Both the position numbers and the translations under genes were made by a program. Source: a virus (lineage: Duplodnaviria; Caudoviricetes). Taken from it: DNA of 56,059 nt. Where the stretch lies: positions 1 to 56,059 of IMG/VR virus record IMGVR_UViG_3300033004_000002. One strand, written 5' to 3'. The first letter of the stretch is position 1, and each line of letters opens with the position of its first letter. The notes beneath the pieces were generated by a model, which saw only the letters and a list, made by a program, of their open reading frames with translations, ran no database searches and had not been told where the DNA came from. Shown piece by piece: positions 5,945 through 31,265 of the stretch.

Positions 5945-5991
5945 TGGGGACAATGACCAGCGGAATTACATGGGACACCTGTCAGGTTATT
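5945..5991 (-). repeat. Bipartite site copy A (AATAACC-N26-GGTCATTGTCCCCA)
   Basis: Aligns with copies B-G. Confidence 0.9.
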
Positions 5992-6018
5992 GAGCGGTCT
6001 TTGCTCGGCTCTCTCCTT

Positions 6019-6052
6019 AAAAGAGAAAAGCCCGGCGCGAAGGCCGGGCTTT
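6019..6052 (-). terminator. Rho-independent terminator downstream of the NusG paralog
   Basis: AAAGCCCGGC-TTCG-type loop-GCCGGGCTTTT on the minus strand. Confidence 0.8.
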
Positions 6053-6211
6053 ATGCTTTGGAAGGCCGCCTATCCGCTGCAGCCGCTCCTCATTGCCGCG
6101 CCTGTCGGATAGCGCGCTCTGGGTATCTCAGGAATCGTTCTAATGGGCCAATCTCTTGGCCCTTCCGCCGGGCGCTTCGGCCCGTCTCCGCGTTGTCACG
6201 GGTGTAACCCG

Positions 6212-6790
6212 CTATACCGCTTCGATCTGGTCCTCATTCAAGTGCAGCAGGACCTGACGCGTCAATATCTCGATTAGAATGGTGATTCGGTAGCGCGGGT
6301 CAAGCCGCTCAATGCGACCTTCCCACATGTCGAACGGGCCGCCGATCAAGCGCACCTTCTGGTCGACCCTGAATTTGCGCTCCTCGGGCAGTCCGTTGCG
6401 CCTGGCTTCGAACCTGCGAACGTCTGCCATGACGCTGAGCGAGATTTTCAGTGCTTCCGGGCCTTGCTTGCCGCAGTATTTAACGAAGCCTCCGATGCCA
6501 TCCGCCGCATCCTTGAGCCTAGCGATATCGGCGTCGAAGTCCGGAATAAACATCGCGCCGGGAAAGATCGGGACCGTCCTCGACAAGCGACGGTTCCATG
6601 CACCCTTGATCGTCCGTTTTTCCTTCGGCACATAGGCCGAGATGCCGTGCTGATGCAGCTGCCGCTCGGCCTTCAGGTCATAGTTCGGATGCAGCCGCAG
6701 CAGGTACCACAGTTTCGGCAGCGGTGTTGCGATAACAGGCCCTTGGACGCACGCGACAAAATCCCTGGTTTCGTAAAGCGCTGCTGTCAT
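6212..6790 (-). CDS. NusG/RfaH-family transcription antiterminator
   Basis: NGN motifs (WYLL...P, PIFPG-MF) and KOW motif (F-x-x-D-Q-K-V-R-L-I-G-G-P-F); sits upstream of terminators and the late genes. Confidence 0.9.
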   Translation of the reverse strand: MTAALYETRDFVACVQGPVIATPLPKLWYLLRLHPNYDLKAERQLHQHGISAYVPKEKRTIKGAWNRRLSRTVPIFPGAMFIPDFDADIARLKDAADGIGGFVKYCGKQGPEALKISLSVMADVRRFEARRNGLPEERKFRVDQKVRLIGGPFDMWEGRIERLDPRYRITILIEILTRQVLLHLNEDQIEAV

Positions 6791-6811
6791 CTGTGGTGCT
6801 CCCTGATTGGT

Positions 6812-7972
6812 TCATTTGAAATCCGCCAGATCATCATCGGTTGCCAGCGCTTGCGGCGGGCCGGTGGTCGACAGTGTTCCATCCTTCCGGGGTGGCCATG
6901 GCCACGGCGCGCGCGAGCCTTCGCGCAGGCGTTGGCGGACCTGCAGGGTCAGATGCTCGCTGAGGAAGCTTTCCCAGGCCGCGGCCTGGTTGCGAGCCAG
7001 CGTCGCCCACTCCGCAACAGCCGGTGCCTGTGCGAGCGCCGCGAGCCGCGGCGTCATGGGAAGTTGATAGTAGACCCGGTCGCCCTTGCGGACGACACTG
7101 CGGAAGAAATCGCCCGCGCCAACGATGTCGTACAGCACAGAGACCGCGCGACCTTCGGGGCTGGCGGTCGGATAGCCGGACATTTTGGCCTCAACGGAGA
7201 CCTGCTCCAGCAGCGTCCAGCGCTTTTCCTTGAGATATTTCCATCCGGCAGGAACCGTGGTGCGCTTGTCGCGTTTCAGCTTTCCAAGAAATGCCGGGAT
7301 GCCGCCCAGCGCTGCCTCGCCCTCGTCGAATTCGAGCACGTACCACGCATCGTCGATCTTGGTTTGATCGTCGCTTGCCGCCGTCGGCCAGCGCCGCTTG
7401 AACTCGGCCAGATTGAGGGCGTGCTTTTCTCGCGCTCGCGCAAGTTCTCTCTCAGAATTTTGGTAAGATTCGTCCCTTGGTTCTTCCGTATTTGGTCCTT
7501 CTATATAGGCCACCCCTGCCTCACCACCCCTCTGGTCAACCACTACTGGCTGGGAGGGGGGTGGATCGTCTGGAATGGAGGGTGGTTCATCCGCCTCATC
7601 ATAGCCGCGCACAATGCCGTCGGGATCGACCTCGCTGGACACCAGCGACAAAGCCATCCTGATCTCGTCATCGCTCAGCTCTTTGCCGGGCAGATCGGAA
7701 ATATCGTAGAGAATGCAGAACGTTCCGTTGGGAAGGCGGATCTTGGTCGCCTGACACCAGCCGGCCGCCATCCACTTGTTCATGATGCGCTTCATGGTTC
7801 CGGGGCCGATGCTCCAGCGGCGCATCAGCGCGGAGCGGCGGATTTCCCAGTCGTGGGGACGTGACAACAGATAGGCCAGGATACCGACCTCGTCGGCGGC
7901 AAGGCGCATGTCATCGAACAGCGTGTTGCTGATCGTCGTAAAATTCTTGGTATGTCGACGGCGGATGATCAT
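6812..7972 (-). CDS. Replication initiator (N-terminal wHTH)
   Basis: NFTTISN...LAYLLSRPHDW wHTH, low-complexity linker, C-terminal FKRRWP...W..L...YL.EKRW domain. Confidence 0.75.
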   Translation of the reverse strand: MIIRRRHTKNFTTISNTLFDDMRLAADEVGILAYLLSRPHDWEIRRSALMRRWSIGPGTMKRIMNKWMAAGWCQATKIRLPNGTFCILYDISDLPGKELSDDEIRMALSLVSSEVDPDGIVRGYDEADEPPSIPDDPPPSQPVVVDQRGGEAGVAYIEGPNTEEPRDESYQNSERELARAREKHALNLAEFKRRWPTAASDDQTKIDDAWYVLEFDEGEAALGGIPAFLGKLKRDKRTTVPAGWKYLKEKRWTLLEQVSVEAKMSGYPTASPEGRAVSVLYDIVGAGDFFRSVVRKGDRVYYQLPMTPRLAALAQAPAVAEWATLARNQAAAWESFLSEHLTLQVRQRLREGSRAPWPWPPRKDGTLSTTGPPQALATDDDLADFK

Positions 7973-8184
7973 CTATTTTCTGGTTTCTTCTTGTTCGCAG
8001 GCCATAGCCCAAACCTGCATCTGTAGGCCTGCTGGCACGACCGTGCCGCGCAGATGATGGTGTCCGGGTTGAAGCACGGCTTCTCGAAATGCGGGCCGAA
8101 GCGGCGCCGGTCGAAGGGGACGAGGTGTTGGTCTTCCTCGGTCCATTCGAGGGGTGGTGTGGTGGGCGGCGGATGGGTGGTCAC
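7969..8184 (-). CDS. Hypothetical protein
   Basis: Coupled overlaps; GAGGAG upstream. Confidence 0.6.
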   Translation of the reverse strand: MTTHPPPTTPPLEWTEEDQHLVPFDRRRFGPHFEKPCFNPDTIICAARSCQQAYRCRFGLWPANKKKPENR

Positions 8185-8315
8185 TCCTCGGTCTCCCGGA
8201 TCGCGTCAGCGAGCGCTTCAAGCCCGCCCTTGAGGTCGTTACCGAGGCCCTCGATTCCGTAGGCAATGAACCAGCCAGCGACAGCCATCCCGATGCCGAT
8301 AAACAGCCCGTTCAT
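8181..8315 (-). CDS. Small membrane protein (MNGLFIGIGMAVAG...)
   Basis: ATGA overlap; one TM segment. Confidence 0.55.
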   Translation of the reverse strand: MNGLFIGIGMAVAGWFIAYGIEGLGNDLKGGLEALADAIRETEE

Positions 8316-8584
8316 GCCACCGCTCCCGCCGCCACGCCCGTGCACCTGATCGGCCAGCGCGACTGCGTCACAGCCCCCTTCTCGCGCCACTCGCGCCAGG
8401 CGTCGCCCTTCGGCGGGATCACGGTCACACGGGTGGCGCCGCAGGTGAGGCAGGTCTTTTCGTGCTGCTCGCAGCCGGTGACGGAGGCCTCCGGCTTGAC
8501 GATTTGTTCCTCGCCGAACAGGTGCTCCGGCGCGCGTGGCTGCGGCAGGTGCACGACGTAGCCCTCGGGCAGCGGCGTGCTCAA
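8312..8584 (-). CDS. Hypothetical Cys-containing protein
   Basis: Probable TTG start overlapping the upstream TGA; CxxC motif. Confidence 0.55.
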   Translation of the reverse strand: MSTPLPEGYVVHLPQPRAPEHLFGEEQIVKPEASVTGCEQHEKTCLTCGATRVTVIPPKGDAWREWREKGAVTQSRWPIRCTGVAAGAVA

Positions 8585-9345
8585 GTCAGACCACCTTGCG
8601 GCTCGCCAGTGCATGTCTGTCTCCGTTGATCTAGGGCGGAATAGCCGGGCGCGGGGTCGCCGAAAAAACAGGCCGTGAGAGACCGTTGAGCCCACGCATA
8701 GCTGCGCGCCTCGGCGTCACGCATGGCCTGCGAGATCTCGACCGGCTGCGGCAGCGGCTTGCTCGCTGCATGCAGGCCAAACGAGGCCCCGTGCGTCCGC
8801 AGCCGGCTCGCGACGGCGGTCGGCGTGCGGTCGAGTTCGGTGCCGATGACCTCGCAGACACGGCGGCGATCGGCGTGCGTGCCGCCGCCATTCTCGGTAA
8901 ACAGCTCGCGCCAGCGGGCCTGGGCCAGCGTCATGTCGGCCTCGGACCATGGCGGATTCTGCCGTTCGGCAGGAGGTGCGGTCTCGCCGGACTCGCCGTT
9001 GCCGGCGTTCGGCCTGAGCCGGTTGTACTTGTGCGAGCAGGTGCCGTGCATGCGGCCGAAATGGCTGTCGATGTCGAGCCAGCACAGCTTTTCGACCTCG
9101 CGCAGCCGGATCAGTTCGGCCTCGGTCTCGGGCGTCCAGCGCGGCCTATTGACCTGGCGCAACTTGATGGCGGTAGCGATCTCCGCTGACGGTCGTTTGC
9201 AACGCGAGGGGTGCGTTACCTTGTTCTTGCAGGACGCGACCGTGCGCCCCACGGCGTCCGCGATCTCGTTCCATGTCGCATTGCGCGCCAGCATGCGAAA
9301 CAGCGTCGCTGTCTGTTCCTCGGTCCAGACGGGGCCCCGTGCCAT
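8581..9345 (-). CDS. GcrA/Myb-like tandem HTH regulator
   Basis: Three W-[TS]-x-x-x repeats each followed by an HTH (WTEEQ, WTPET, WSEAD). Confidence 0.7.
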   Translation of the reverse strand: MARGPVWTEEQTATLFRMLARNATWNEIADAVGRTVASCKNKVTHPSRCKRPSAEIATAIKLRQVNRPRWTPETEAELIRLREVEKLCWLDIDSHFGRMHGTCSHKYNRLRPNAGNGESGETAPPAERQNPPWSEADMTLAQARWRELFTENGGGTHADRRRVCEVIGTELDRTPTAVASRLRTHGASFGLHAASKPLPQPVEISQAMRDAEARSYAWAQRSLTACFFGDPAPGYSALDQRRQTCTGEPQGGLT

Positions 9346-9382
9346 GGTTCAGTTGCTCCTGTTGATCGTGATGCATTCCAGA

Positions 9383-9429
9383 TGGGGACAATGACCGGGG
9401 TCGCCTGTGGCGGCCCCTGTCAGGTTATT
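9383..9429 (-). repeat. Bipartite site copy B
   Basis: AATAACCTGACAGG...GGTCATTGTCCCCA with a 26-nt spacer. Confidence 0.9.
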
Positions 9430-9448
9430 ATCGACCGGTTGTGCGGCG

Positions 9449-10252
9449 TTAGATCTTGCCGAACACCGCCATGACGCTGGTGCGCTCGACCACCCCCGTC
9501 ACGATCAGCTTGAACGCGGCCTGCCGGATCAATTCCGAGCGGTGCAGCTTGATGCCGAGCGTCAGCTTGGCATCGTCCAGTTTCCAGCGCAGGAAGGCGT
9601 AGACCTCGGTCGGCGGATCGCCGAAGTATACCGGGATGTTGAGCAGGAACCTGGTCGGCAATTCGAGATCGCCTTTGGTGCGCGCCTCGGTGTTGTCGTT
9701 GAACTCGAAGCTCTCGTTGTCGGTCTCGGTCCGTATCGCCTTGATGAAGCTGACGTTGCGGCGGGCCTGCAGGTCGCGGCATGCCTCCAGCAGCGAGCCG
9801 GCATCGGGTGCCTTGATGTCGGGCGCGTTCTCCTCGATGAAGCGGGCAAACTCGAGCTGCTCGCTCATCTTGCCGTTGATGCCGCTCCAGATCTTCCATT
9901 CCTCTGAGAACGGCAGATCGAGCGTGGCGCGATGCTCGACCAGCGCCGGGGATTGGGCACCGTGATAGTCGACGGCGGCCAGGATGCGGCTCGCGGCGAC
10001 GTCGGCGAGCAGCAGCGACTCTGCGGTCTTGAAGCGGTTGAGGTAGTCGGCCATCGCGTCCGCGTTCTGCAGGGTCACGCCCTGCTTGATGCTTTTCGGC
10101 TTCAGCACCTCCGTCTTGTGCGGTGGCGTCACCTCGATTGAGCCGTGATCGTTGGGGACGATCAGGTATTCGCGGCCGCTCGGCGTCGAAATGACGTGCG
10201 GCGCGGCTGCGGCTTTCTGGGCCAGTTTGGCAATCGAATCGGTTTCGGTCAT
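9449..10252 (-). CDS. DUF2303 (YfdQ-like) phage protein
   Basis: AVDYH...HRATL...SEEWK-W...Q-EFA-FIEEN and LP-RF-L-IPVY motifs. Confidence 0.85.
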   Translation of the reverse strand: MTETDSIAKLAQKAAAAPHVISTPSGREYLIVPNDHGSIEVTPPHKTEVLKPKSIKQGVTLQNADAMADYLNRFKTAESLLLADVAASRILAAVDYHGAQSPALVEHRATLDLPFSEEWKIWSGINGKMSEQLEFARFIEENAPDIKAPDAGSLLEACRDLQARRNVSFIKAIRTETDNESFEFNDNTEARTKGDLELPTRFLLNIPVYFGDPPTEVYAFLRWKLDDAKLTLGIKLHRSELIRQAAFKLIVTGVVERTSVMAVFGKI

Positions 10253-10303
10253 GGTCTCTCCGGGTTGGATATCGTCGGTTAATCGTGCAGTGCGGTTGAA
10301 CGA

Positions 10304-10624
10304 TCAGTCGCGCGCGGCCGATCGGCCGCCCGCCTCGGTGAACATCTCACGCTGTTGCGGGTCGGAGCGGTGCAGGCTGCCTTCCTCGTCCGAGAAGAAC
10401 ACCGCTTCCGGAATGTCGCCTTCCGGCATCTTGGCCTTGACGTCGCAGCCGATGGTCTTCTGCGAGCCGCCACCTTTTTCGGGCTTGACCTTGAAGGTGA
10501 TCGTCAAGGTGCCGGCCTTGCCGGTTTCGTCGACCGCCTGGACCAGTTCAGCCATCTTGCGGCTCGCCACATCAGCGGCGCGGCCGTTGCGGTATTCGCG
10601 GAGAATGTCGGTGATCAATCGCAT
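10304..10624 (-). CDS. Conserved phage protein usually paired with DUF2303
   Basis: V..TGKAG.LT.T...P...FF...G.L.R.DP.Q pattern; AGGAGG RBS. Confidence 0.8.
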   Translation of the reverse strand: MRLITDILREYRNGRAADVASRKMAELVQAVDETGKAGTLTITFKVKPEKGGGSQKTIGCDVKAKMPEGDIPEAVFFSDEEGSLHRSDPQQREMFTEAGGRSAARD

Positions 10625-10650
10625 GCGCTATTTCCTCCTGTTGGATTCGA

Positions 10651-10697
10651 TGGGGACAATGTCCAGCGCCGTGCGCTGGGACACCTGTCAGGTTATT
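10651..10697 (-). repeat. Bipartite site copy C; contains the NADAR stop codon
   Basis: Shares 21 nt with copy A; 26-nt spacer. Confidence 0.9.
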
Positions 10698-11241
10698 GTT
10701 GACCGACCTCGCGGCTTCCGCGCAGTTCGGCGCGAATTTCCATCCAGAGCTTGCCGAGCATATTCTGGCCGTCGCGGTTCGGACCCCATCCCCAGAAGTC
10801 ATCCCGCCAACTGTCCTCAATGAGTTCGCGATCGTCGGTCGCGAGGAGCTTGCGGCGCACGTATTCATGCTGGTTCGCTTTCTCGCGCAGTATTTCGCGC
10901 ATGAAGGCAATCTTTTGAAAGTCCCAATCACCAACCTGAAAACGCTGCTCCTGCTGCGCCAACTTGAAGGCATCATGAGCAGATCGTGCATTCTTGACCT
11001 TGCCAGCGATAAGCTGGGCACCGGGCAAATCCGACAACGTAAACCGCAACCAGTGATAAAGATGCTCGCTGGTCTTGAAGGTGAATCCGGACCATTCGAC
11101 CTCGAACGACGAGAAGTTCGAAAGGACATAGAAGTCCTGTTCGTAAAAGAAAACCTGCCGCTCGTTGTCGAGCTTGTGAAACTCCGGAACTGCGGGGTAA
11201 CCGATGACTGCCGACGCGGGCTCAGTGGCGCGGTGATCCAT
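10693..11241 (-). CDS. NADAR (YbiA-like) family protein
   Basis: LSNF...F-T-SEH-Y...K..QH...LLAT...E-S-D-FWG...G-N-LG-LWM-IR motifs. Confidence 0.92.
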   Translation of the reverse strand: MDHRATEPASAVIGYPAVPEFHKLDNERQVFFYEQDFYVLSNFSSFEVEWSGFTFKTSEHLYHWLRFTLSDLPGAQLIAGKVKNARSAHDAFKLAQQEQRFQVGDWDFQKIAFMREILREKANQHEYVRRKLLATDDRELIEDSWRDDFWGWGPNRDGQNMLGKLWMEIRAELRGSREVGQQ

Positions 11242-11243
11242 AT
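11189..11243. repeat. 55-bp repeat (site H) forming the 5' end of the NADAR gene
   Basis: 52/55 identical to 17503-17557. Confidence 0.95.
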
Positions 11244-11255
11244 CCTTCTCTCCGT

Positions 11256-11498
11256 TTACTTCTTGTTTTCCTTCGTCGCCGGCACGATCACATACCCCGC
11301 CTGCCGCAACAGCCGCAGCGTCTGAAAGATCACCTGGTCCCCGTCCTCAACGGGACGCCCCGGCACCCACTGCGTCCCGTTGAGCGCGAGCGCGATCACC
11401 TCGCCGGGCGTGAGCACGGGCGCGGCCGTGGGCTTGCGCAGGACGGCCGCGAGGTCGTCGATGATGAGGCGGCGGGTGGCCGAGGTACGGGGGGTCAT
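11256..11498 (-). CDS. Hypothetical protein
   Basis: ATGA coupling. Confidence 0.65.
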   Translation of the reverse strand: MTPRTSATRRLIIDDLAAVLRKPTAAPVLTPGEVIALALNGTQWVPGRPVEDGDQVIFQTLRLLRQAGYVIVPATKENKK

Positions 11499-11959
11499 GG
11501 GTGATGTCCCAGCGAGCGGGCGTCACTGACCTGACTCGGCAGAATCATTCGGGTGACCTCGTCCGGCAGCGTGAACATGCTCTGTCGCCCGCGATATGGG
11601 ATCGGTTGGTTCAGTTTGACGATCGCCGCGCGGCGCCACGCGAAGCGCCCGGCTTCCCAGTTACCGCACTGGAAATCATCGGCATGCGCCGGCTTCGCCG
11701 CAGGCATCTGCTCGCAGGCGATCAGATCGACCGCGCCGATGATTGCGCTCGTCGGCAGGTCCATGGCCCAATGGCCGCCGAACTCATCGTCGAGGATGTC
11801 CTGCATCGCAGCCCACGTGCTGAAATCCTTTTCGAAGTGCTTCGTCGCGTGCACGGCGAGCCAGCCGCGGTGCGGCGTCGACCAGTGCCGGGTTTCGTGG
11901 ACCTTGCGGTCGGTCAGCCACAGCGAGGCCCAGGGTTGCCACAGGGAGATTGCTTTCAT
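11495..11959 (-). CDS. ASCH domain protein
   Basis: MKAISLWQPWASL...K-HETR-W...RG-LAVHA...G-QS motifs. Confidence 0.9.
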   Translation of the reverse strand: MKAISLWQPWASLWLTDRKVHETRHWSTPHRGWLAVHATKHFEKDFSTWAAMQDILDDEFGGHWAMDLPTSAIIGAVDLIACEQMPAAKPAHADDFQCGNWEAGRFAWRRAAIVKLNQPIPYRGRQSMFTLPDEVTRMILPSQVSDARSLGHHP

Positions 11960-12159
11960 GCTGTCACCCCATCCGGTTCACACACAGGCGTCCCCTTCCC
12001 CTCGCCCCTCTCCCCGTCCCGCCAGAACTCCACCCCATGCACGCGGCCCTCGCGTCCAAACGGATGCAGCGTGACCTTGATGGTGCGGCAGCCGCGCAGG
12101 CATTCGCGCTCGGTCTTGTGCACCATGCGATTGCCGAGCTTGGGCCAACGATGGTTCAT
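11956..12159 (-). CDS. Hypothetical protein
   Basis: ATGA coupling on both sides. Confidence 0.6.
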   Translation of the reverse strand: MNHRWPKLGNRMVHKTERECLRGCRTIKVTLHPFGREGRVHGVEFWRDGERGEGKGTPVCEPDGVTA

Positions 12160-13292
12160 GGGCGGCGCTCCGGCATCGCGTTGTGTTCGACGTCGTCGAG
12201 CAGGCGGCCGGCGCGGGCCTTGCCGACGCGCTCGACGAACGCCGCACCGGCCTCCGGGTAAAGCTCATCGGCCCGCGCGACATGCGGATAAGCCTTGATC
12301 GCCTGCCACCCAGAACGCGGATTTCCCTTGGCCTGCTCCGGCGTCGACGGCGCCCATTCGCCCCATTGCTTGAAGAAGAAGGGCACGCCGGCAGCCTGGC
12401 ACTGGTCGCGCAGCGATCGGTCCCAATCGACATGCATCGGCCGCGCCCTCGGGCCGCTCTCGCCGCCGACGATCACCCAGTCGAGGCGCGGGCCGCAGTT
12501 CGTGGACCAAACGGAATGACTCCCGGTGCCGTCTGCCCGGCGATGTGACCAAGTCCCATCCTCATGAAGATGTTCACGCCGATCACTCCCAGTGAGAACG
12601 TTATATCTCTCCCGAACTGTTTTCCGGTCTGGTACGAAGCCTCGCATTGCCCAGGGAATCGCCGTCAAGTCGATCGGCCCCAGCAGCGGCTCGCCGCTGA
12701 TGAACCGCACCGCTGCTGGCGTCTGCAGCAGCAGCGGAATCCGTTCGTCGGCCTCCTGCTGCCGCTCGGCAGATACACCGAGCCAGACGTTCGGCAGCGG
12801 CCAATTCACTTGCCAGTCGCCGCCATGGTTGATCTTGCTGCCTTCGGGCGTGCCCAGCATTGACCAGATATGGCCGTTGATCGTGTGACGGCTCGTCCTG
12901 ACGCAATAATCCCGCATCCTTCGCGCCCGCTTCGTCAGCACCTGAAACGTATGCTGCGGGCACAACGCCATCACCGCGAAGACGCGATCGATCCATGCAT
13001 CGGGACAATCCTCGTGGAACAGGTCGCTCATCGAGTTGACAAAATACGTGGTCGGTTTCTTCCGCTTCAGCGGCTGCAGCAGCGTTGCTTCCGGTGCCTG
13101 CACCAGCTTTCCGGTCCACAACGCGTTGCCGTTGACGACGCGAGTGGTGCCGTCATAGCGGGAGATGCCCATGGCCTCGTTGCGGGCTGCAGTCTTCATG
13201 GCATAGCAGTTGGTGCAGCCGGGGGGGACGATGGAGCAGCCGACGATGGGATTCCAGACGTGTGACGTCCATTCGATCGAGGTTTTGCTCAT
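12156..13292 (-). CDS. DUF5131 / phage Gp37-Gp68 family (radical-SAM-like)
   Basis: IEWT...WNP-GC-x4-GC-NCYA, FVNSMSDLFH, LTKR, WVIVGGESG, PFFFKQWG. Confidence 0.92.
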   Translation of the reverse strand: MSKTSIEWTSHVWNPIVGCSIVPPGCTNCYAMKTAARNEAMGISRYDGTTRVVNGNALWTGKLVQAPEATLLQPLKRKKPTTYFVNSMSDLFHEDCPDAWIDRVFAVMALCPQHTFQVLTKRARRMRDYCVRTSRHTINGHIWSMLGTPEGSKINHGGDWQVNWPLPNVWLGVSAERQQEADERIPLLLQTPAAVRFISGEPLLGPIDLTAIPWAMRGFVPDRKTVRERYNVLTGSDRREHLHEDGTWSHRRADGTGSHSVWSTNCGPRLDWVIVGGESGPRARPMHVDWDRSLRDQCQAAGVPFFFKQWGEWAPSTPEQAKGNPRSGWQAIKAYPHVARADELYPEAGAAFVERVGKARAGRLLDDVEHNAMPERRP

Positions 13293-14205: not shown

Positions 14206-14207
14206 GA

Positions 14208-22134: not shown

Positions 22135-22218
22135 CGCGCGAGGCCCGGCAGGTCGCGAGCGTAGCGACCTTGCGACCTGCCGGGGATCTTTCCATCACGA
22201 CAATCAGGACCGACACCC

Positions 22219-23908: not shown

Positions 23909-23912
23909 GATC

Positions 23913-24322: not shown

Positions 24323-24888
24323 GCATCGAAATTCCAGATGTCGTTGTCTCCACTATTCGCACGGCTGCGAAGATGGGATTTTCGGACGGCTATGCCAGCG
24401 CGGCAACGGCCGCCTATATCCGCCTCTGTTCGCACTTCCATGGCCATACGGGCTCGCTGATCCTGTTCAGTCGCGATCAATATCATCACTCCAGTGGCTG
24501 GATGAAAAACCCGGATTTTGAACGCTGCTGGCATCTGAGCCTGTCGTTCCGCGAACCATTTCCGACATGGCCAGTCGACCGGCTTTCGAGCCCACAGACA
24601 CTGGCGCAACTCGGTGCAGTTATTCCGCTTGTTTCTTTCGATTGGAAGCTGGCGCGAAAGTGGGTCGATCTGATTCTCGGCGATGACGCCAAGCTGTCCT
24701 GGGTTGAGACTGCGAAAAGCCCGCAAGGCAAGGAGCTGAGTGTCATGCACTGGCGCGTGTTCACCGATCCAGGATGGTCGGCGATCAAGCCTCGCGGCGA
24801 AGTCTACAGTAAGGAACTCACCAATGCGGGTTGGCGATCTTGGTCGGACCTCAACATTGAACGACCGAGCAACGTCGATGCCGATTAA
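24319..24888 (+). CDS. Hypothetical protein (RD..HHSSGW.KNPD.ERC.HLSLSF)
   Basis: GAGGGGG RBS; lower GC3. Confidence 0.7.
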   Translation: MSIEIPDVVVSTIRTAAKMGFSDGYASAATAAYIRLCSHFHGHTGSLILFSRDQYHHSSGWMKNPDFERCWHLSLSFREPFPTWPVDRLSSPQTLAQLGAVIPLVSFDWKLARKWVDLILGDDAKLSWVETAKSPQGKELSVMHWRVFTDPGWSAIKPRGEVYSKELTNAGWRSWSDLNIERPSNVDAD

Positions 24889-25312
24889 CCGCCCGCAACG
24901 CCTCACCCCGCCGTCACCGCTCGGCAGCCTGCTTAAACGCGCCGGGGTACCGACCCGGTCGCGCATCTCGCCTGAAGAGAGGAATCCCGACTATCTCGCC
25001 CTGGTCAGGCAGTGTCCCTGCCTGCGCTGCGGCATGGAGCCCTCGGAAGCGGCGCATGTTCGTTACGCGTCGGCCGCTTTCGGGAAGGCCTCCGGGATGC
25101 AGAAGAAGCCGGAGGACCGATTCGCGGTGCCGTTGTGCGCGGACTGTCACCGGCTTGATCGCGACGCACAACACAAGCAGAACGAACGTGGGTTCTGGGA
25201 ACAGATCGATATCAACCCGCTGCTGGTCGCAGCACACCTCTATGCGCAGCGGGGCGACCTGGTGGCGATGCGGGCGGTTTGTTTCGTGGCGATTGCGGAA
25301 CGGGGGAAGTGA
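24878..25312 (+). CDS. DUF968/Ref-like HNH Zn-binding nuclease
   Basis: YL..VR..PC..CG...AAHVR...KP.D...VPLC..CH. Confidence 0.75.
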   Translation: MPINRPQRLTPPSPLGSLLKRAGVPTRSRISPEERNPDYLALVRQCPCLRCGMEPSEAAHVRYASAAFGKASGMQKKPEDRFAVPLCADCHRLDRDAQHKQNERGFWEQIDINPLLVAAHLYAQRGDLVAMRAVCFVAIAERGK

Positions 25313-25488
25313 TGGGCCCTGCTATTGCTCGCTGGACTGGAAAGTGCCCGACCTGCAAATGGCGGTTTGAGGCAGTCTCCGAATCTGAGCCAGAACGCAA
25401 TCCATATCCGAGCGGACTTCGCTGCCCGCACTGTCAAAAAGATGTTTTCTTTTTAACACGCGACACTAAGCCAACAGAGGAAGTTTGA
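25312..25488 (+). CDS. Small Zn-ribbon protein
   Basis: CPTC...CPHC. Confidence 0.55.
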   Translation: MGPAIARWTGKCPTCKWRFEAVSESEPERNPYPSGLRCPHCQKDVFFLTRDTKPTEEV

Positions 25489-26204
25489 ATCACCGGACCG
25501 CCGCCGTCTCGTCGAGAGCGGAGCGGTCATCAGAGAGCGAAGGGATTTGCGACATGCGTGAAAAGCCAATTTTATGTGTCGATTTCGACGGCGTTATTCA
25601 TTCCTACACAAGCGGATGGAAAGGCGCGACCGTCATCCCCGATCCTCCGGTCAAGGGCGCGCTGCGCTGGCTGTGGAAAGCGACCGAATGGTTCGATGTG
25701 CAAGTCTATTCCTCGCGGTCGAAGGAGTCGGCGGAGCGAGAGGCGATGCTGCAATGGATGATGCGTGAGAGCCGCAAGGAGTTCGACGCGGATCATCCGA
25801 TGTGCAATCCGGAGGAGACGGAGGATCTGATCGACCTCACGACTTTCGACAAATATCCGATCACGTTCGCGCACGAAAAGCCGGCCGCGTTCTTGACGAT
25901 CGATGACCGCGCGATCTGCTTCGAGGGCGATTGGAGCGAGATCGACCCGGCCGACCTGCTCAACTTCAAGCCGTGGAACAAGCGAGACCTCGGCGCGACT
26001 GGAACCTTCCCGCAAGGCGTTCTCAACGATGACGACCAGGGCGCACTCAAGATCGGGATCGCCTACGATAAGCGGGATGGGCTCGTACATCTGAATTTCG
26101 GCAAGCCTGTCGCGTGGACTGCCTTCCCTCCGGAAATGGCCGCCAATCTCGCGCGCACGCTGTTGAAGCATGCTGGCGCGAAGAAGATCGAAATTTCCTT
26201 TTAG
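25485..26204 (+). CDS. HAD-family hydrolase fused to a C-terminal conserved phage domain (start may be 25554)
   Basis: LCVDFDGVIHSY, SSR, KPAA..IDDRA; C-terminal GATGTFPQG...DD.G.L...FGKPV.W. Confidence 0.85.
   Translation: MNHRTAAVSSRAERSSESEGICDMREKPILCVDFDGVIHSYTSGWKGATVIPDPPVKGALRWLWKATEWFDVQVYSSRSKESAEREAMLQWMMRESRKEFDADHPMCNPEETEDLIDLTTFDKYPITFAHEKPAAFLTIDDRAICFEGDWSEIDPADLLNFKPWNKRDLGATGTFPQGVLNDDDQGALKIGIAYDKRDGLVHLNFGKPVAWTAFPPEMAANLARTLLKHAGAKKIEISF
25488..25531. repeat. Degenerate bipartite site J at the 5' end of the HAD gene
   Basis: AATCAC-N32-GTCATC; GGTCATCAGAGAGCG matches GGTGATCAGAGAGCG at site G. Confidence 0.6.
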
Positions 26205-26224
26205 CCCCGCGAGCGCGACCGCCA

Positions 26225-26271
26225 GATAACCGAACAGGTCTCACCTCGCACACAGCAGGTCATTGTCCCCA
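26225..26271 (+). repeat. Bipartite site copy E
   Basis: GATAACC-N26-GGTCATTGTCCCCA. Confidence 0.9.
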
Positions 26272-26292
26272 AATCCTTAAGGAATCCCTCCC

Positions 26293-26586
26293 ATGAGCGA
26301 ACGCCTAGGCCGTCTCGAATCCACCAACTACGACGTCTACCTCAGCCTGTCGGAGCAGGCCGCGATCGAAGCCAACCAGCGCGCCAGCGAGGCCTTCGCC
26401 GCAGCGCTGAACCGCCAGATCAAGCGGGGCCGCGAGAGCGTCGCCCGCGGTACCTTCGTCGACCGCTCGCCCGCGATCGGCGCGCGGCGGCTCTATGGCA
26501 GCACGCCTGCGTCCGCCTACGGCTCGCCGGCTCAAATGTGTGCCGAGCGGGGCAGCATCAGCGTGGTTGCGGCGGCGTTGAAGTAG
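26293..26586 (+). CDS. Hypothetical protein
   Basis: AAGGA RBS. Confidence 0.7.
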   Translation: MSERLGRLESTNYDVYLSLSEQAAIEANQRASEAFAAALNRQIKRGRESVARGTFVDRSPAIGARRLYGSTPASAYGSPAQMCAERGSISVVAAALK

Positions 26587-26599
26587 AGGGCTGCGCGCA

Positions 26600-26974
26600 A
26601 TGTACTACCGTCAATGCGGCGACTTGCCCATCCATCCATTCCGACCGAACGAGAACATGGCGCCGCTCGGTCGCAGGCGCCCTGATGGCAGCCGCGAATC
26701 TGCCGGACCCTGGATGTCCATGCTCATGCTTACCGAGGGCGACGCCAAGTACGCCGCGGCGCATCTCAACATGCAAGACGACGGGTTTATCTACGTCGCT
26801 CATCCCAATTTCATGGGCTATGAGGGGCCCGACTACGGCGTGAGCCAGCATCTGAAAACCCCTTGGGGCGCGGGCCCATACTACGATTCCGTCTATCGCG
26901 ATCACCTTGCCCACATCTGCTGGGATCGCCCGATTGTGCCGCAGGCTGACGCCTACAACCATCGAGAAATATAA
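26600..26974 (+). CDS. Hypothetical protein
   Basis: GAGGG RBS. Confidence 0.65.
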   Translation: MYYRQCGDLPIHPFRPNENMAPLGRRRPDGSRESAGPWMSMLMLTEGDAKYAAAHLNMQDDGFIYVAHPNFMGYEGPDYGVSQHLKTPWGAGPYYDSVYRDHLAHICWDRPIVPQADAYNHREI

Positions 26975-26987
26975 GGAGGAAAACGAT

Positions 26988-27392
26988 ATGACGGAATTAG
27001 AAGAGCTAACAGAGCGATTACTGCAGCTCGCCAATGACGAGGGAACCGCGCAAATTCACGATGTCGCTGTGCAGATCGCGAGCCTGGCACCTCGACTCGG
27101 ATCGGCTCCTAAGCGCACGGATACAAAGACGTTGGAGCGGCTTGCCGACCAAATAAAAATAGATGCCTCCTCTGGAAGGGGGCTGAACCCATCGGCGCTT
27201 TTCTCAATCGTTGACATAATTCAGCGCGCGATCGGTGCACCGCTTATGTGGCCGAGCCGATCAGCGGGCGCAGACGCGGCAGATGCCTACTATCGGGGAG
27301 ATCCAGATCTTCGGCACGCTTTCAATGCAGGCGTGAAGTGGGCTGTTGAACAATACCATGACTTGAACCTGGACCAAGTCAGGCCGCGTTGA
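26988..27392 (+). CDS. Hypothetical protein (lower GC)
   Basis: AAGGAGG RBS. Confidence 0.7.
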   Translation: MTELEELTERLLQLANDEGTAQIHDVAVQIASLAPRLGSAPKRTDTKTLERLADQIKIDASSGRGLNPSALFSIVDIIQRAIGAPLMWPSRSAGADAADAYYRGDPDLRHAFNAGVKWAVEQYHDLNLDQVRPR

Positions 27393-27413
27393 CCTCGCAT
27401 CACCGGAGTCACC

Positions 27414-27668
27414 ATGTCCGCACTCACCCTGATGGCCGCAGCCCTCAACAAAGAACTACAGCACCGAGGCGTTTGCGACTTCACGCAGGACGCGTGCGCC
27501 GAGATCCTGCGCACCGTGATCGACCAGGTCCGCGACATCGAGGCAACCTACAACACCTCCCATCCCGGCCCCATGCCCCCCTCGACAGGCCGGGTCACTG
27601 ACGGCGGATGCATCATCGCAAGCGATGCATCCGCCGTCGATTTTGAAAATCAGGAAGAGCAGCCGTGA
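27414..27668 (+). CDS. Hypothetical protein
   Basis: GGAG RBS. Confidence 0.6.
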   Translation: MSALTLMAAALNKELQHRGVCDFTQDACAEILRTVIDQVRDIEATYNTSHPGPMPPSTGRVTDGGCIIASDASAVDFENQEEQP

Positions 27669-27904
27669 CCATAAGCAGAGACGTTCACATCCTCACCAGC
27701 CGCGATCTCGACACCATGGTCAGCGAGGCTTTTCAGCGTGGCGTAAAGCGAGGTCGTTTCGAGCAGCGAATGGATGACGGCAAAGAGCCGGTCGCCAGGA
27801 ACTGCCGGAACTGGCGCGACGGAATCTGCGATCATTGCGGAGCGCAGCACCAGGGCTGCGAAGTCGCTGCAGATTTTAAATGTCCGCATTTCGTTCGTAG
27901 ATAG
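27665..27904 (+). CDS. Cys-rich hypothetical protein
   Basis: GTGA coupling. Confidence 0.55.
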   Translation: MTISRDVHILTSRDLDTMVSEAFQRGVKRGRFEQRMDDGKEPVARNCRNWRDGICDHCGAQHQGCEVAADFKCPHFVRR

Positions 27905-27917
27905 CGGCCGGCAGCCG

Positions 27918-28367
27918 ATGACCACCACAAGCACAGAAAACTTCATTATCGTGGAGCGCGACCTCGATCTGCGGGACTCCGGCGTGTTCACCGGCCAGAT
28001 CCAGATCGTCGAAACTCGCCTGATGCTGTTCGAAGACGGCCGTCCAATCCAGAGCATCGACGGCATCGCCTCGCCGCATATCGAGCACGCCTTTGTGTTT
28101 CATTCGGCGTGGACGGCCTGGCGCTTCGCAATGCAGTTCGAGCCACACTGGGACGCCGGGCGCCGCCGCTATTGGGGCTTCCGACGCTGGGTCGCGCGCA
28201 GGGATGGTGACTTCTTTCCGGGCGAATGCCGGCACGGCATCAACGCGCCGAATCCCTGCATTCACGGCAAGACCTGGATTCCGCACGAGGCCATCATGGC
28301 AGCGGCGGCGGACAGTTTCGAACAAGGCCGACGTTCGGCGCTGGCCGAGATGGGGCAGCCGCAATGA
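27918..28367 (+). CDS. Hypothetical protein
   Basis: High GC3; coupled downstream. Confidence 0.65.
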   Translation: MTTTSTENFIIVERDLDLRDSGVFTGQIQIVETRLMLFEDGRPIQSIDGIASPHIEHAFVFHSAWTAWRFAMQFEPHWDAGRRRYWGFRRWVARRDGDFFPGECRHGINAPNPCIHGKTWIPHEAIMAAAADSFEQGRRSALAEMGQPQ

Positions 28368-28543
28368 AACACGCCCAGCGCCAGAGCGAGGACTCGCTAC
28401 CCCCCGACATCCTGCGGATCGTCGAAGGCATAGCTTTGGCGCTGGCGCAAGAGCATCATGAGATGGAAAACGCGGAAAAAACAGTTTTCAGGGCGGGACG
28501 GCCGGGATTTGATCGGCGCAGCCTTGGCCAACAGGAGCGATGA
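28364..28543 (+). CDS. Candidate recombination directionality factor
   Basis: LPPDILRIVEGIA..LA.E.HE helix of the kind often found just upstream of serine recombinases. Confidence 0.45.
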   Translation: MKHAQRQSEDSLPPDILRIVEGIALALAQEHHEMENAEKTVFRAGRPGFDRRSLGQQER

Positions 28544-28720
28544 ATGACTCTCGAAATCCACTGGGGAAAGGTTGCTCGTCATCTCAAGGATGACGCCGAG
28601 CAAATCAGAGAACGCGCGATAACCGCGTTTCACGGGGACATCGCTACGCAGAAGGAAATGCAGACCCGCGCCGCGATCCTGGAATCGTTGGCGAACGCAC
28701 TTTGGTACGGCCTAGAGTGA
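28544..28720 (+). CDS. 58-aa hypothetical protein (MTLEIHWGKVARHL...), below the ORF-track cutoff
   Basis: AGGAG RBS; GTGA overlap with the integrase start. Confidence 0.6.
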   Translation: MTLEIHWGKVARHLKDDAEQIRERAITAFHGDIATQKEMQTRAAILESLANALWYGLE

Positions 28721-30399
28721 AACGCGCCGCGATCTACGCCCGCTTCTCAAGCGACCTACAGTCCGACCGCTCGATCGAGGACCAGGTCACGCTCTGTCAG
28801 GCGAAGGCCGCCCGCGACGGCTTCAAGATCGTGGCGACCTTCTCCGACCGCGCCCGCTCCGGCGCCTCGATCCACGGCCGCGCCGGCATTGCCGAGCTGC
28901 TCGCCGCCGCCAAGGCCGGCCAATTCGACGTCCTGATCGTCGAGGAGCTCGACCGCCTGTCGCGCTCGCAGGCCGACCTTGCCTCGATCTATGACCGGCT
29001 GACTTTCGTCGGCATCGACATCCTGACCGTGCATGGAGGGGCGGGCCGCACCGACCAGATCCAGGTCGGCATCCGCGGCATCGTCGGCGCCCTGTTCCTG
29101 ACCGACCTGGCGCACAAGGTCCGCCGCGGCGCCGCCGGCAATATCCGGCTGGGCAAGCACGCCGGAGGTCTCGCCTATGGCTACGACACCACGCCGGGCC
29201 AGCCAGGCGCGTGGACCATCAACGAGGAACAGGCGGCCATCGTGCGGCGAATCTTCACAGCCTATCTCGCCGGCGAGCGGACGCCGGCAATCGCGCGATC
29301 GCTCAATGCCGATGGCATCAAGCCGCCGCGCGGCAGCTATTGGCAGCCGGGCGCTTTGACCGGATCAAACAACCGCCACAACGGCATCATGGGCAACGAA
29401 ATCTATTGCGGCCGTCTGGTTTGGAATCGCGTGCGCATGATCAAGGATCCGGAGACCGGAAAGCGCGTGTCGCGGCCGAACCCGGAAACCGAGTGGCAGC
29501 GGGCTGAGGTGCCGCATCTGATGATCGTGCCGCCGGAAGTCTTCGACCAGGCCGCGGCGCTGAAGGCCTCCCGCGGCAATCTGGCGCCGACGCACCGCCG
29601 CGCGCCGAAGGCGCTGCTCTCCGGCCTGCTCAAATGCGGCAGCTGCGGCGGCGGCATGTCGATCAAGGGCCGCGACCGCGGCGGCGTGCGCATCGTCTGC
29701 ACCACGTTCCACAATGCCAAGCTTTGCGCCAACAACCGGACCTATTACCTGCATCACGTCGAGGAGACCGTGCTGTCGGGCCTGCGGCGCCACCTGGTCG
29801 ATCCGCGCGCGATCAAGCACTTCCTCAAATGCTACCACGACGAGCGCAAACGGCTGGTAGTCGAGGCGTCCAGGGAGCGGCCGGATCTGGAGCGGCGGCT
29901 TGGCGAGGCCACCCGCAAGCTCGCCAGGCTCACCGAGGCCATGCTTGACAGCGATGCGCCCGTGGCTTCATTCACCACGAGGATCGCCGAGCTCGAGCGG
30001 GAGAAAGCCGAGATCGAGGCCAGGCTCGCGCAAATGTCGGAACCGGTCCGGGTGATCGCCCTTCATCCGGCAGCCCAAGAGCACTATCTCAAGGTCGTGA
30101 ATGATCTCGCCGCGGCGGTTCGGGACCGCGCCGACCGCAGCGCGATGGCAGCGCCGGTCCGGGACCTGGTCGACAGCGTGATCGTGCATCGGACCTTGCC
30201 GGGCGAGCCGATCCGGCTCACGGTCAACGGGCGCCTGGCGGCGCTGATCGGGCAGCCGGTGTTTCCGCAAGGTTCTCTGTCGGGGGTCAAGTTGGTAGCG
30301 GGAGCCCGCTACGGGATAGAACCCCGTGTGGATGTACCTGTTTTTGCTATGGAGTTTTTTGGCGCGCGAAAAATGGGTCGTACGGCCCCGCACCCATAG
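28717..30399 (+). CDS. int: Large serine recombinase (integrase)
   Basis: AIYARFSS..Q..SI.DQ, D.A.SG, LDRLSR; recombinase domain; Zn ribbon (LLKCGSCG...C...C); coiled coil. Confidence 0.95.
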   Translation: MKRAAIYARFSSDLQSDRSIEDQVTLCQAKAARDGFKIVATFSDRARSGASIHGRAGIAELLAAAKAGQFDVLIVEELDRLSRSQADLASIYDRLTFVGIDILTVHGGAGRTDQIQVGIRGIVGALFLTDLAHKVRRGAAGNIRLGKHAGGLAYGYDTTPGQPGAWTINEEQAAIVRRIFTAYLAGERTPAIARSLNADGIKPPRGSYWQPGALTGSNNRHNGIMGNEIYCGRLVWNRVRMIKDPETGKRVSRPNPETEWQRAEVPHLMIVPPEVFDQAAALKASRGNLAPTHRRAPKALLSGLLKCGSCGGGMSIKGRDRGGVRIVCTTFHNAKLCANNRTYYLHHVEETVLSGLRRHLVDPRAIKHFLKCYHDERKRLVVEASRERPDLERRLGEATRKLARLTEAMLDSDAPVASFTTRIAELEREKAEIEARLAQMSEPVRVIALHPAAQEHYLKVVNDLAAAVRDRADRSAMAAPVRDLVDSVIVHRTLPGEPIRLTVNGRLAALIGQPVFPQGSLSGVKLVAGARYGIEPRVDVPVFAMEFFGARKMGRTAPHP

Positions 30400-30507
30400 A
30401 GCCAATGTGGACTCGCCACATGCCAGCTCGCGCAAAAGCCCGCCAGATGGGTTCCGGCGGGCGTGGTGGCGAGGAGGACAATCACGGCGAGCAGGGGCAT
30501 GGGCCGC

Positions 30508-30807
30508 TCACGTCGCGATCTCGAACATTTCCTCGACCGCCTGGTCGGCGGTGATCTCGCCCCGCTTGTGGGCCTCCAGGATCGGCTTGACGTCCTTGAA
30601 GGACACGGTTTTGATTTCCGTCTTGAACAGGACCGCGCGGACCGCGCAATCCTTGGCTTCGAGCAGCTTGCGCAGGGCCACCGTGCTTTCCGGATTTTTC
30701 GGTAGCTCCGCTGCCAGTTTTCGGGCGAGATCGCCGAACGGTGCGCTGACAGCCTGCAGGTGCGGCGGCAGGTGCTCATAGGCGAAGAACTGCAACAGAT
30801 TATCCAT
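30508..30807 (-). CDS. Conserved small phage protein; helical hairpin reminiscent of nucleotide-sponge proteins
   Basis: FFAYEHLP.HLQ.VS.PF...LP.NPE.TVALRKLLEAKD.AVRA; AAGGA RBS. Confidence 0.8.
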   Translation of the reverse strand: MDNLLQFFAYEHLPPHLQAVSAPFGDLARKLAAELPKNPESTVALRKLLEAKDCAVRAVLFKTEIKTVSFKDVKPILEAHKRGEITADQAVEEMFEIAT

Positions 30808-30860
30808 CGGTCATTCCTTTGATCAACCGGGCATCCGGCCCGGCGCGGAGTTTTCAAGAT

Positions 30861-30906
30861 TGCGGACAACTGTCAGCGGTGAGGGGGTGAGACCGGTTCG
30901 GTTATC
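30861..30906 (-). repeat. Bipartite site copy F; contains the stop of the 30902-31231 gene
   Basis: GCCAGATAACCGAAC.GGTCTCACC shared with copy E; 25-nt spacer. Confidence 0.85.
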
Positions 30907-31231
30907 TGGCAGCGCATGATGCGGCCAAAAGCTTGGCGACTCGCTTCGCTGCGGCAATTTCACTTGCGCAATATTCTTCTTGCTGACGCGGCAGGATGAA
31001 AACGCGACCATCCCAACGTCTATCGAGAAGCACCAATTCAATCTCTGACCACGACAGACCTCCGCGTTGCGCTAGACGACTAAGTGTCTGATCGTGATTC
31101 TGTAGTGCTTGTTTTTCGTGTGGTCCGATTATGGACCATGGAATTCCTTGAGGGAAATCAGCGCCAACCATTTTTCGAGCGCTGCCTAAGACCGGAAACA
31201 AGGCATCCTCCGCTCTCTGATCACCAGTCAT
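30902..31231 (-). CDS. Hypothetical protein (IPW..I.PHE.QA..NH.QTL.RLA.RGGLS..E)
   Basis: GGAGG RBS; lower GC; bracketed by sites F and G. Confidence 0.75.
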   Translation of the reverse strand: MTGDQRAEDALFPVLGSARKMVGADFPQGIPWSIIGPHEKQALQNHDQTLSRLAQRGGLSWSEIELVLLDRRWDGRVFILPRQQEEYCASEIAAAKRVAKLLAASCAAR

Positions 31232-31265
31232 GACGACTCCTCCGCTACGCTGGCAGTTGTCCAAA
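31219..31265 (+). repeat. Bipartite site copy G (inverted relative to F)
   Basis: GATCACC-N26-GGCAGTTGTCCAAA. Confidence 0.8.

Follow-up and report, generated by a model that had tools for sequence, protein, structure and literature searches.

The window, that is the whole stretch of DNA analyzed here, is the complete IMG/VR virus record IMGVR_UViG_3300033004_000002 (56,059 bases, 63% G+C, with a 127-base terminal repeat). This temperate soil phage encodes a large serine integrase and a CI-like repressor. Its leftward genes extend from about 17.6 kb across the 0/56 kb junction to 30.5 kb, and its rightward genes occupy 18.3-30.4 kb. Six of its gene junctions carry full copies (E1-E6; Table 1) of a two-box element of approximately 65 bp, which is the subject of this analysis. 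The unit consists of a block 0, a block 1, a gap of 22-24 bp, a block 2, and an A/T-rich tail, and about 65 distinct copies occur in other uncultured phages, prophages, and metagenome contigs.

Table 1. Positions of the element copies, terminator-like hairpins, slot modules, and genes of the window referred to in the text.
Feature	Position	Strand	Remarks
E1	5943-6008	-	matrix 5943-5993; block 0 GCCGAGCAAAGACCG, block 1 AATAACCTGACAGG, 23-nt gap, block 2 GGTCATTGTCCCCA
E2	9381-9446	-	matrix 9381-9431
E3	10649-10714	-	matrix 10649-10699
E4	17232-17297	-	matrix 17232-17282
E5	26208-26273	+	matrix 26223-26273; GAAC class
E6	30859-30923	-	matrix 30859-30908; GAAC class, gap 22 (one base shorter)
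Partial inverted copy	31219-31265	+	block 2 good, block 1 poor
T_up, terminator-like hairpin	6019-6052	-	10-bp stem and T-run, upstream of E1
T_down, terminator-like hairpin	5905-5935	-	begins about 8 nt after E1; common to relatives
5' slot module 1	11189-11243	-	start codon and 16 codons (MDHRATEPASAVIGYP) of the NADAR gene
5' slot module 2	17503-17557	-	start of the 90-aa gene ending at E4
Terminase large subunit	3415-5037	-	
terS (terminase small subunit)	5294-5953	-	
NusG paralog (antiterminator-like)	6212-6790	-	PF02357 at 33.3 bits; phrog_6386 "transcription antiterminator"
386-aa helix-turn-helix (HTH) protein	6812-7972		
Myb-like regulator, two-repeat	8581-9345	-	
DUF2303 gene	9449-10252	-	
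phrog_204 gene	10304-10624	-	
NADAR gene	10693-11241	-	PF08719
ParB-methyltransferase (fusion)	15295-17139	-	
CI-like repressor	18338-19036	+	
SIS/phosphoheptose-isomerase-like gene	25485-26204	+	
Large serine integrase	28702-30399	+	Pfam
Lipoprotein-like gene	31270-31662	-	
Tail-fibre gene			present in window

A first-pass annotation had listed seven sites of the pattern RAT[AC]ACC-N25/26-G[GA]NN[AG]TTGTCC. All seven are present where it placed them, and they are the only matches of the pattern in the window; 300 first-order Markov resamples of the sequence contain no match. The stricter pattern ATAACCNNACMGG-N23-RTTGTCC yields five exact matches and one with three mismatches, against 0.05 expected, and an independent repeat search recovers the same family (repeat groups D2/D3). 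With a two-block weight matrix and a free gap, the six full copies are found in the window and none in 20 shuffled windows; the repeat family is non-random. The seventh site, although it matches the earlier pattern, fails the weight matrix: only its block 2 (CTGGCAGTTGTCC) is good, and it is inverted with respect to the local genes, lying between the lipoprotein-like gene and an open reading frame (ORF) of 109 codons (30902-31231). Three further sites that had been proposed as degenerate versions do not pass the matrix either and are not copies of the motif. Two of these (11196-11238 and 17510-17552) belong instead to a separate 55-nt repeat at gene starts (D6, 95% identical), and the third (25488-25531) is the start of the plus-strand SIS-like gene.

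Conservation was assessed on 57 distinct 43-mers, pooled from the window, 13 related phage records, three genome loci, and 41 metagenome loci; two of them (L139 and L111) were set aside as chance, so that the logo comprises 55 copies, to which seven copies with a gap of 22 and one with a gap of 24 are additional. Block 1 reads R-ATAACC-(TG or GA)-AC-M-GG (RATAACC-KR-ACMGG), giving a TGAC and a GAAC class, and block 2 reads C-T-G-G-Y-M-R-TTGTCC-M-M-A (GGYMRTTGTCCMMA). Block 0, further upstream, is weakly conserved (GCCGAGCAAAGACYG), with C-17 at 82% in the logo. Positions 1-6, 9-13, and 37-43 were fixed or restricted by the search pattern and are uninformative in this respect, but positions free of it are conserved as well (C19 98%, C22 89%, C31 87%, G33 96%, G34 93%, A46 84%). 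The spacing, too, is conserved in relatives: an IMG/VR scan in which the gap was free to vary from 13 to 33 gave 25 matches, 15 with a gap of 23, seven with 22 (all of the GAAC class), and one each with 24, 26, and 28, the last two of which lack the other features of the family and look like chance. In the orthologous pair E5/L142, the gap differs by one base. Relatives carry one or two copies each, and carriers overall one to six per genome.

There is very little chance that we are dealing with a functionless repeat, selfish or neutral, such as a scar of illegitimate or homologous exchange or a passenger resembling a miniature inverted-repeat transposable element. The family is indeed phage-restricted, present in few copies per genome, and associated with insertions and deletions, and the single copies in the carrier records G011 and G012 may be passengers of their downstream genes. 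However, across about 65 copies the spacer drifts in sequence at a constant length, with next to no variation in the two blocks and at several single positions, whereas a neutral repeat would decay evenly or be homogenized as a whole. Moreover, terminal inverted repeats and target duplications are lacking, and the orientation is strictly co-directional with the genes.

Going by these searches of Rfam, the cultured phages, and the literature, the element is undescribed. A blastn search of INPHARED with an 86-nt copy returned only chance matches of 21-23 nt, and searches of the literature for the two hexamers together with promoters, and for NusG paralogs in prophages, brought up no description of the motif among the papers listed and nothing on this system, respectively.

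All six full copies of the window are intergenic and lie on the strand of the ORFs on both sides, which bears out the co-orientation with local transcription reported in the first-pass annotation. Upstream genes that are supported by a family match end inside block 1 or at most 23 nt before it. The TAA stop of the NADAR gene (10693-10695) forms part of block 1 of E3, and that of the 109-codon ORF (30902-30904) part of block 1 of E6, so that the two stop codons noticed earlier are confirmed. The DUF2303 gene stops 22 nt before E2, the SIS-like gene 21-23 nt before E5, and the TGA of a 90-92-aa slot gene (phrog_7033-like) lies 3-5 nt ahead of block 1 of E4. An upstream stop inside block 1 was considered as a general rule (23/55 copies) and withdrawn. 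This count is unreliable because spurious frames in G+C-rich DNA run on to the A/T-rich block; a filter on third-position G+C content (GC3) left 48 of 67 copies undecidable, and only cases backed by a family match were kept.

On the downstream side, 35 of 67 copies have the ATG of an ORF of 60 or more codons at +2 to +59 relative to TTGTCC. In four of these the distance is +2 to +6, which would be compatible with a leaderless start close to A46, and the stretch GAAAGCATCAC(C)ATG is common to several unrelated downstream genes. In the window, the Myb-like gene starts 41 nt after E2, the phrog_204 gene has its ATG 30 nt beyond block 2 of E3, the gene at 26293-26586 begins 25 nt after E5, and that at 30508-30807 57 nt downstream of E6. 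E1 precedes the late operon, and E4 the ParB-methyltransferase gene, from which it is separated by a leader of about 100 nt. The downstream gene in G010 encodes a GapR-like small protein (named from sequence only), and that in G011 a 256-aa protein that reads as an FkbM-like methyltransferase. In G012 and G001, an outer-membrane-like and a secreted-looking protein (by eye) follow the element. Moron-like genes whose N-termini resemble signal peptides by eye are also among the downstream genes.

The leader between E4 and the ParB-methyltransferase gene (17140-17231, -) contains repeated CGCGT words (ACGCGTAA..CACCCGCGTT). These words are conserved across relatives, with at least ten other copies, and may be operator sites for control of the methyltransferase.

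Insertions and deletions were mapped against G010, a syntenic relative with approximately 60-85% protein identity, and the element copies coincide with boundaries of insertion or replacement. The 196 bases at 5935-6130, with E1 and an extra terminator, are an insertion relative to G010, from which the SIS-like gene together with E5 is also absent. The phrog_204 and DUF2303 genes form a cassette (9430-10648, -) bounded by E3 and E2; at this site, G010 has no cassette and a single element, which matches E3 on the 5' side and E2 on the 3' flank. Likewise, the interval between the NusG-paralog gene and the terminator contains the element in the relative L129 and not in G010.

A second conserved piece was found at the other end of some of the variable genes. 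Each member of the D6 repeat pair opens a minus-strand gene and comprises its start codon plus the first 16 codons (MDHRATEPASAVIG..), and altogether eight genes in six records start with MDHRATEPAxAVIGHP or a close variant. All eight end at the element, whereas their bodies are unrelated (NADAR, PF08719; DUF4326, PF14216; a zinc-ribbon-like 90-aa protein; and five unknowns). With a shared start and an element at the end in 8/8 cases, these variable genes sit in slots bounded by the 5' piece and the element. G005 retains only short relics of the 5' module, and when the search for it was widened with a DNA pattern, G010 alone was added.

The slot of the NADAR gene in the window is occupied in G010 by a DUF4326 gene (8447-8869, -), and the first 16 residues of the two are identical. 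Both may be anti-defence cargo, and the shared N-terminus may be a functional tag or a mere recombination patch. ARAGORN predicts a tRNA-Asn (17569-17643, -), which adjoins the 5' slot module at 17503-17557 directly upstream, and a 94-nt tRNA-Phe (13714-13807, -); Rfam supports the tRNA-Asn only (63.7 bits).

The exchange of genes at these boundaries raises the question whether the element is an attC-like site at the 3' end of mobile gene cassettes that is cut and joined by a recombinase. We regard this as rather unlikely. It would fit the location at or over the upstream stop codon, the presence of the element on both sides of an inserted cassette (E3, cassette, E2), its gain or loss as a discrete unit (L129 versus G010), and the ending of all eight slot genes in the element, and block 1 ends with AAC and block 2 begins with RTTG, faintly like the attC cores RYYYAAC and GTTRRRY. 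However, the 52 ORFs of the window searched with Pfam include no tyrosine (integron-type) integrase. The only recombinase is the large serine integrase, for which tblastn found no match in the 13 carrier records; the element was thus also rejected as the attP site of this enzyme. Furthermore, block 2 reads ATTGTCC in about 80% of copies and then fails GTTRRRY, neither block is an inverted copy of the other, no excess of hairpins is seen, and relatives have one or two copies each instead of arrays. A still bolder idea, to which we assign a small probability, is that the phages would run an integron-like slot system of their own, in which accessory cassettes, possibly of anti-defence genes (NADAR, DUF4326, and unknowns), are swapped between a fixed 5' module and the 3' element, the latter being recognized by a dedicated recombination or expression factor. 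The element would then belong to a new class of site-directed gene-shuffling devices in temperate phages and would not be an ordinary promoter.

The first-pass annotation had taken the variable spacer of fixed length as a sign of a protein-bound DNA site, and the gap of 22-24 as well as the folding tests agree with this view. Compared with shuffled sequences, the spacers show no excess folding (z -0.15 +/- 0.16, n = 55). For positions 7-43, z is -0.87 on the forward strand and -0.92 on the reverse complement (n = 55), the GAAC class has a mean z of -0.44, and column-pair covariation gives no diagonal above shuffled pairings and no fixed register. A hint of a hairpin in the first 25 copies (mean z -1.7 forward, -1.05 reverse) faded when 55 copies were used, and the upper stem is not shared by the homologous copies in G001 and G012. 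Structured RNA was rejected on these grounds. Rfam at gathering thresholds identifies only tRNA in the whole window, and at E-values up to 5 no family (c4 and c4-a1b1 among them) matches the body of the element in 15,215 bases around five copies, and the c4-like antisense target pairs suggested earlier were rejected accordingly. The nearest Rfam match is CC0196 (23 bits, gathering threshold 35), which extends over the terminator behind E1 and some 14 nt of the element itself. Since a fixed gap without a fold points to a reader of double-stranded DNA that touches both blocks, we infer that the element is recognized in this form by a protein contacting block 1 and block 2.

E1 occupies a special position in the late-control region, ahead of the late (terminase) operon. 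Two strong terminator-like hairpins, T_up (6052-6027) and T_down (about 5935-5913), lie 90 nt apart with E1 in between, and the NusG-paralog gene is the final gene before this region. L129, L107, and G003 share the order NusG-paralog gene, approximately 100-130 nt, element, terminator, conserved leader, and terS, and the sequence of paralog, element, and terminator recurs in the window. The paralog is also present in G010 and G005, where no element follows, and G010 otherwise has the same late region as L129, L107, and G003. In G005, the place of E1 is occupied by another module, about 150 nt long and flanked by two terminators (13170-13360, -); it has the block 0 (CCGAGCA) and the tail (CCCCCGAAAATCTTAAACC) of the element, but GAGGAACGACA at the position of block 1, and may be a diverged sister family. 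As G010 lacks the element and G005 has another module, the element belongs to a set of modules that can replace one another in front of the late terminator. Judged by its surroundings, the E1 site is where a promoter feeding an antitermination-controlled late operon would stand.

This arrangement also bears on the idea of an RNA-level signal, i.e., an intercistronic processing or stability element or a nut/put/ops-like loading or antitermination site for the NusG paralog, to which we give little credence. The orientation is always that of transcription, pairing between GACAG of block 1 and TTGTC of block 2 is possible in the TGAC class, G+C-rich hairpins occur in many spacers, and E1 lies just downstream of the NusG-paralog gene and upstream of terminators; the folding scores of the first 25 copies were on this side as well. 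Against this stand the scores of the 55 copies, with forward equal to reverse, no covariation, and an unfolded GAAC class, as well as the missing Rfam match and a gap that is stricter than an RNA stem would need. In addition, E1 follows a strong terminator that would cut it off from upstream transcripts, G010 and G005 have the paralog and no element before the late operon, and G011, G012, and G001 have the element without a detectable paralog.

Other sequences of the late-control region were noted in passing. The leader between the terminator after E1 and terS (5773-5873, -) resembles the alphaproteobacterial sRNA mmgR/suhB (RF00519) at 34.1 bits, below the gathering threshold of 41 (E 3e-5 in a 601-base search, 7e-4 in 15 kb). 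It contains a UGCCCU..AGGGCGUUUCCUCCC hairpin and its own terminator, and the sequence also precedes terS in G010, G005, G003, G004, L129, and L107. Directly after the NusG-paralog gene, the non-coding stretch 6131-6202 (-) is 91.7% identical to G010, above the neighbouring genes, and forms a hairpin with a compensatory change, GGGCCAA/TTGGCCC in the window and G010 versus GGACAATCTC/GAGATTGTCC in G005, followed by TTAGARCGATTC. It is a candidate for the loading site of the NusG paralog or for the true late-control element. Finally, two to three GANTC sites (GGAATC..GGAATC; ~5740-5760, -), the methylation site of CcrM, are located directly before the start of terS, and also in G010, G005, G004, L129, and L107.

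A scan for near-consensus sigma-70 promoters found none in positions 1-20000, against 3.6 expected, and one weak match in 17000-36900, with none on any element copy; these scans used the E. coli consensus, which does not cover alphaproteobacterial variants. The lack of such sites in 1-20000 suggests that the promoters of this phage are not of the E. coli type. The sole near-consensus site in 17000-36900 (30799-30826, -; TTGATC-16-GATAAT, 9/12) overlaps the start of the gene at 30508-30807, downstream of E6. The element itself does not read as a sigma-70 housekeeping promoter of this type (-35 and -10 hexamers 16-18 bp apart, with A-11 and T-7), as the consensus scan finds no site on any copy and the best manual fit is about 6/12. 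Sites for sigma-54, extracytoplasmic function (ECF) sigma factors (AAC-N16-CG), sigma-32 (CCCCATNT), CtrA, LexA, and IHF were compared by eye with their known consensuses and misfit in spacing or key bases. TTGTCC(A/C)CA resembles a DnaA box by eye at 7-8 of nine positions, but this leaves block 1 and the fixed gap unexplained.

Candidate reader proteins were sought by Pfam searches of 52 ORFs, six-frame searches of the record, and tblastn against the 13 carrier records. The first-pass annotation had named the integrase, a GcrA-like protein, and the NusG paralog, none of which is supported as a dedicated reader: the NusG paralog has a tblastn match in two of the 13 carriers, and the Myb-like protein in three. 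The CI-like protein matches only G007 and, weakly, G006, and a stoperator or operator that tracks its own repressor was dismissed, as G010, G011, and G012 carry the same element without a CI-like protein. An unlikely alternative is an operator, roadblock, or boundary site of another kind, which would not itself be a promoter but the place where a DNA-binding regulator, for example the phage Myb-like protein, the 386-aa HTH protein, or a host nucleoid protein, governs read-through or represses transcription locally. The constant gap between the two conserved blocks and the lack of an RNA fold would suit it, and each block is a near-palindrome of 11 bp (ACCTG-A-CAGGT; GGWCA-T-TGTCC). The element stands directly before the Myb-like gene in the window (E2), G005, and G010, as for an autoregulated gene. 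The Myb site is YAACNG, and block 1 contains the similar TAACCG or TAACCT, while block 2 reads CAACTG on the opposite strand in about 20% of copies. The orientation rule and the placement at gene ends are, moreover, reminiscent of the stoperators of cluster A mycobacteriophages. However, G011, G012, and G001 have no detectable Myb-like, HTH, or CI-like homologue, phages share the same element even when their CI-like repressors differ or are missing, which sets it apart from immunity-specific operators, and neither block is in excess across the three host genomes searched.

The hosts are probably Hyphomicrobiales, because family-like copies of the motif occur in records titled as metagenome-assembled genomes (MAGs) of Pseudolabrys and Hyphomicrobium. 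In a motif scan of one genome per species, only three of 40 matches were judged family-like. Among cultured phages, the NusG paralog matches only a Bradyrhizobium prophage (31% identity). The whole motif occurs only once or twice in each of three MAGs, and a host regulon site or a host repeat akin to repetitive extragenic palindromic (REP) elements was rejected, as these three contain no multitude of chromosomal copies outside prophages.

The promoters or operators and the recombination sites proposed in the earlier annotation are both candidates, since copies stand at the beginnings of transcription units or cassettes as well as at insertion and deletion boundaries, and our tentative preference is for a reading that combines elements of the two. 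The element would be a portable gene-junction module of promoter type, recognized by protein at the DNA level, and would at the same time act as a linker for recombination in the manner of the PeSL cassettes discussed below. The most likely reader would be RNA polymerase together with a helper factor, with the element acting as a non-canonical promoter and the downstream gene starting near the conserved A three bases after TTGTCC. The reader could be the host RNA polymerase with an unrecognized helper, or a small, fast-evolving phage protein. Because the same sequence is found at many junctions and in several phage lineages, the element would also provide a homology patch for the insertion, replacement, and loss of accessory cassettes.

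Several observations weigh against this promoter-type module. The element contains no -35/-10 pair at normal spacing, the best fit being xTGxCx, 17 nt, CATTGT (manual, on the logo), and the base at the would-be A-11 is G in about 20% of copies. The six-frame and Pfam searches of the record found neither a sigma factor nor an RNA polymerase nor GcrA, and no regulator is shared by all carriers: PHROGs gives none in common, and G011, G012, and G001 lack tblastn matches to both the NusG paralog and the Myb-like protein. When the blocks were searched singly in three host genomes, block 2 had seven matches versus three for the control, with no excess outside prophage contigs, and block 1 had five versus none, four of the five being on contigs with a full copy, so that no host regulon is visible. 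The late operon of G010 has no element ahead of it, which makes the element dispensable there. E2, E3, and E4 may all be internal to a single long leftward operon, in which promoters are unneeded, and the element is closer to the upstream stop than to the downstream start, which would suit a 3'-end element too. Finally, no run recorded as RNA contains the stretch.

To our knowledge, there is almost no experimental phage biology for soil Hyphomicrobiales phages. If the element is a promoter, it would represent a class in these phages that is unlike sigma-70, ECF, or sigma-54 sites, and would mark independently expressed accessory genes in metagenomic phage contigs. Whether promoter or linker, the motif would offer a cheap handle on the variable cargo of this phage group.

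Among known systems, the promoters of T7 RNA polymerase are 23 bp long, phage-specific, conserved, and situated at gene junctions. Phage promoters of this type share with the element the near-invariant blocks at junctions, the co-orientation, and the frequent overlap with the end of the upstream gene, but the element is about 50 bp long with a variable middle, and neither a phage RNA polymerase nor a sigma factor was found in the record. The stoperators of cluster A mycobacteriophages are single boxes of 13-14 bp, specific to the repressor of an immunity group and present in approximately 20-30 copies per genome. They, too, are asymmetric dispersed sites near gene ends oriented with transcription, whereas the element is bipartite, about 50 bp long, and common to phages whose CI-like repressors are unrelated or absent. 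The attC sites, recognized by the tyrosine recombinase IntI, are imperfect palindromes with the cores RYYYAAC ... GTTRRRY. Like the element, they stand at the 3' ends of the genes in cassettes, where they may take in the stop codon, have conserved ends and a variable middle, and bound exchangeable genes; here, however, no integron integrase was found, the cores misfit, and there is neither an imperfect-palindrome fold nor an array. The c4 antisense RNA of P1/P7 likewise involves paired short conserved boxes in a temperate phage, but the boxes of the element keep a fixed spacing in about 65 copies across lineages, there is no Rfam match at gathering thresholds or at E-values up to 5, and no gene for a complementary regulator RNA was found.

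The closest described system appears to be that of the promoter-early stem-loop (PeSL), with which the element shares its behaviour but not the anatomy of terminator plus sigma-70 promoter. Arbiol et al. reportedly described PeSL in 2010 as mobile regulatory cassettes of T4-type phages. The same view of PeSL as mobile regulatory cassettes in these phages is given by Comeau et al. (2014; PMC4122927). In the parts of that account that concern their anatomy, PeSL consist of a terminator-like stem-loop and a recognizable sigma-70 early promoter, and are found in lytic T4-like myoviruses of Gammaproteobacteria. The element, in contrast, has no supported stem-loop, no T-run, and no consensus promoter hexamer pair, its carriers are temperate, with probable Hyphomicrobiales hosts and one to six copies per genome, and a second conserved piece, the shared 16-codon gene start, marks the other side of the slot. 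As far as the same account describes them, PeSL are nevertheless short conserved intergenic motifs that are repeated in variable phage regions, oriented with the genes, and flank small accessory genes, just as the element does. They also lie at boundaries of insertion, deletion, and replacement between related phages, which is what we observe between the window and G010 and between L129 and G010. If the element is chiefly a recombination linker, it would be a searchable marker for hypervariable slots with candidate anti-defence genes (NADAR, DUF4326), and would extend the PeSL idea from lytic T4-like to temperate phages.

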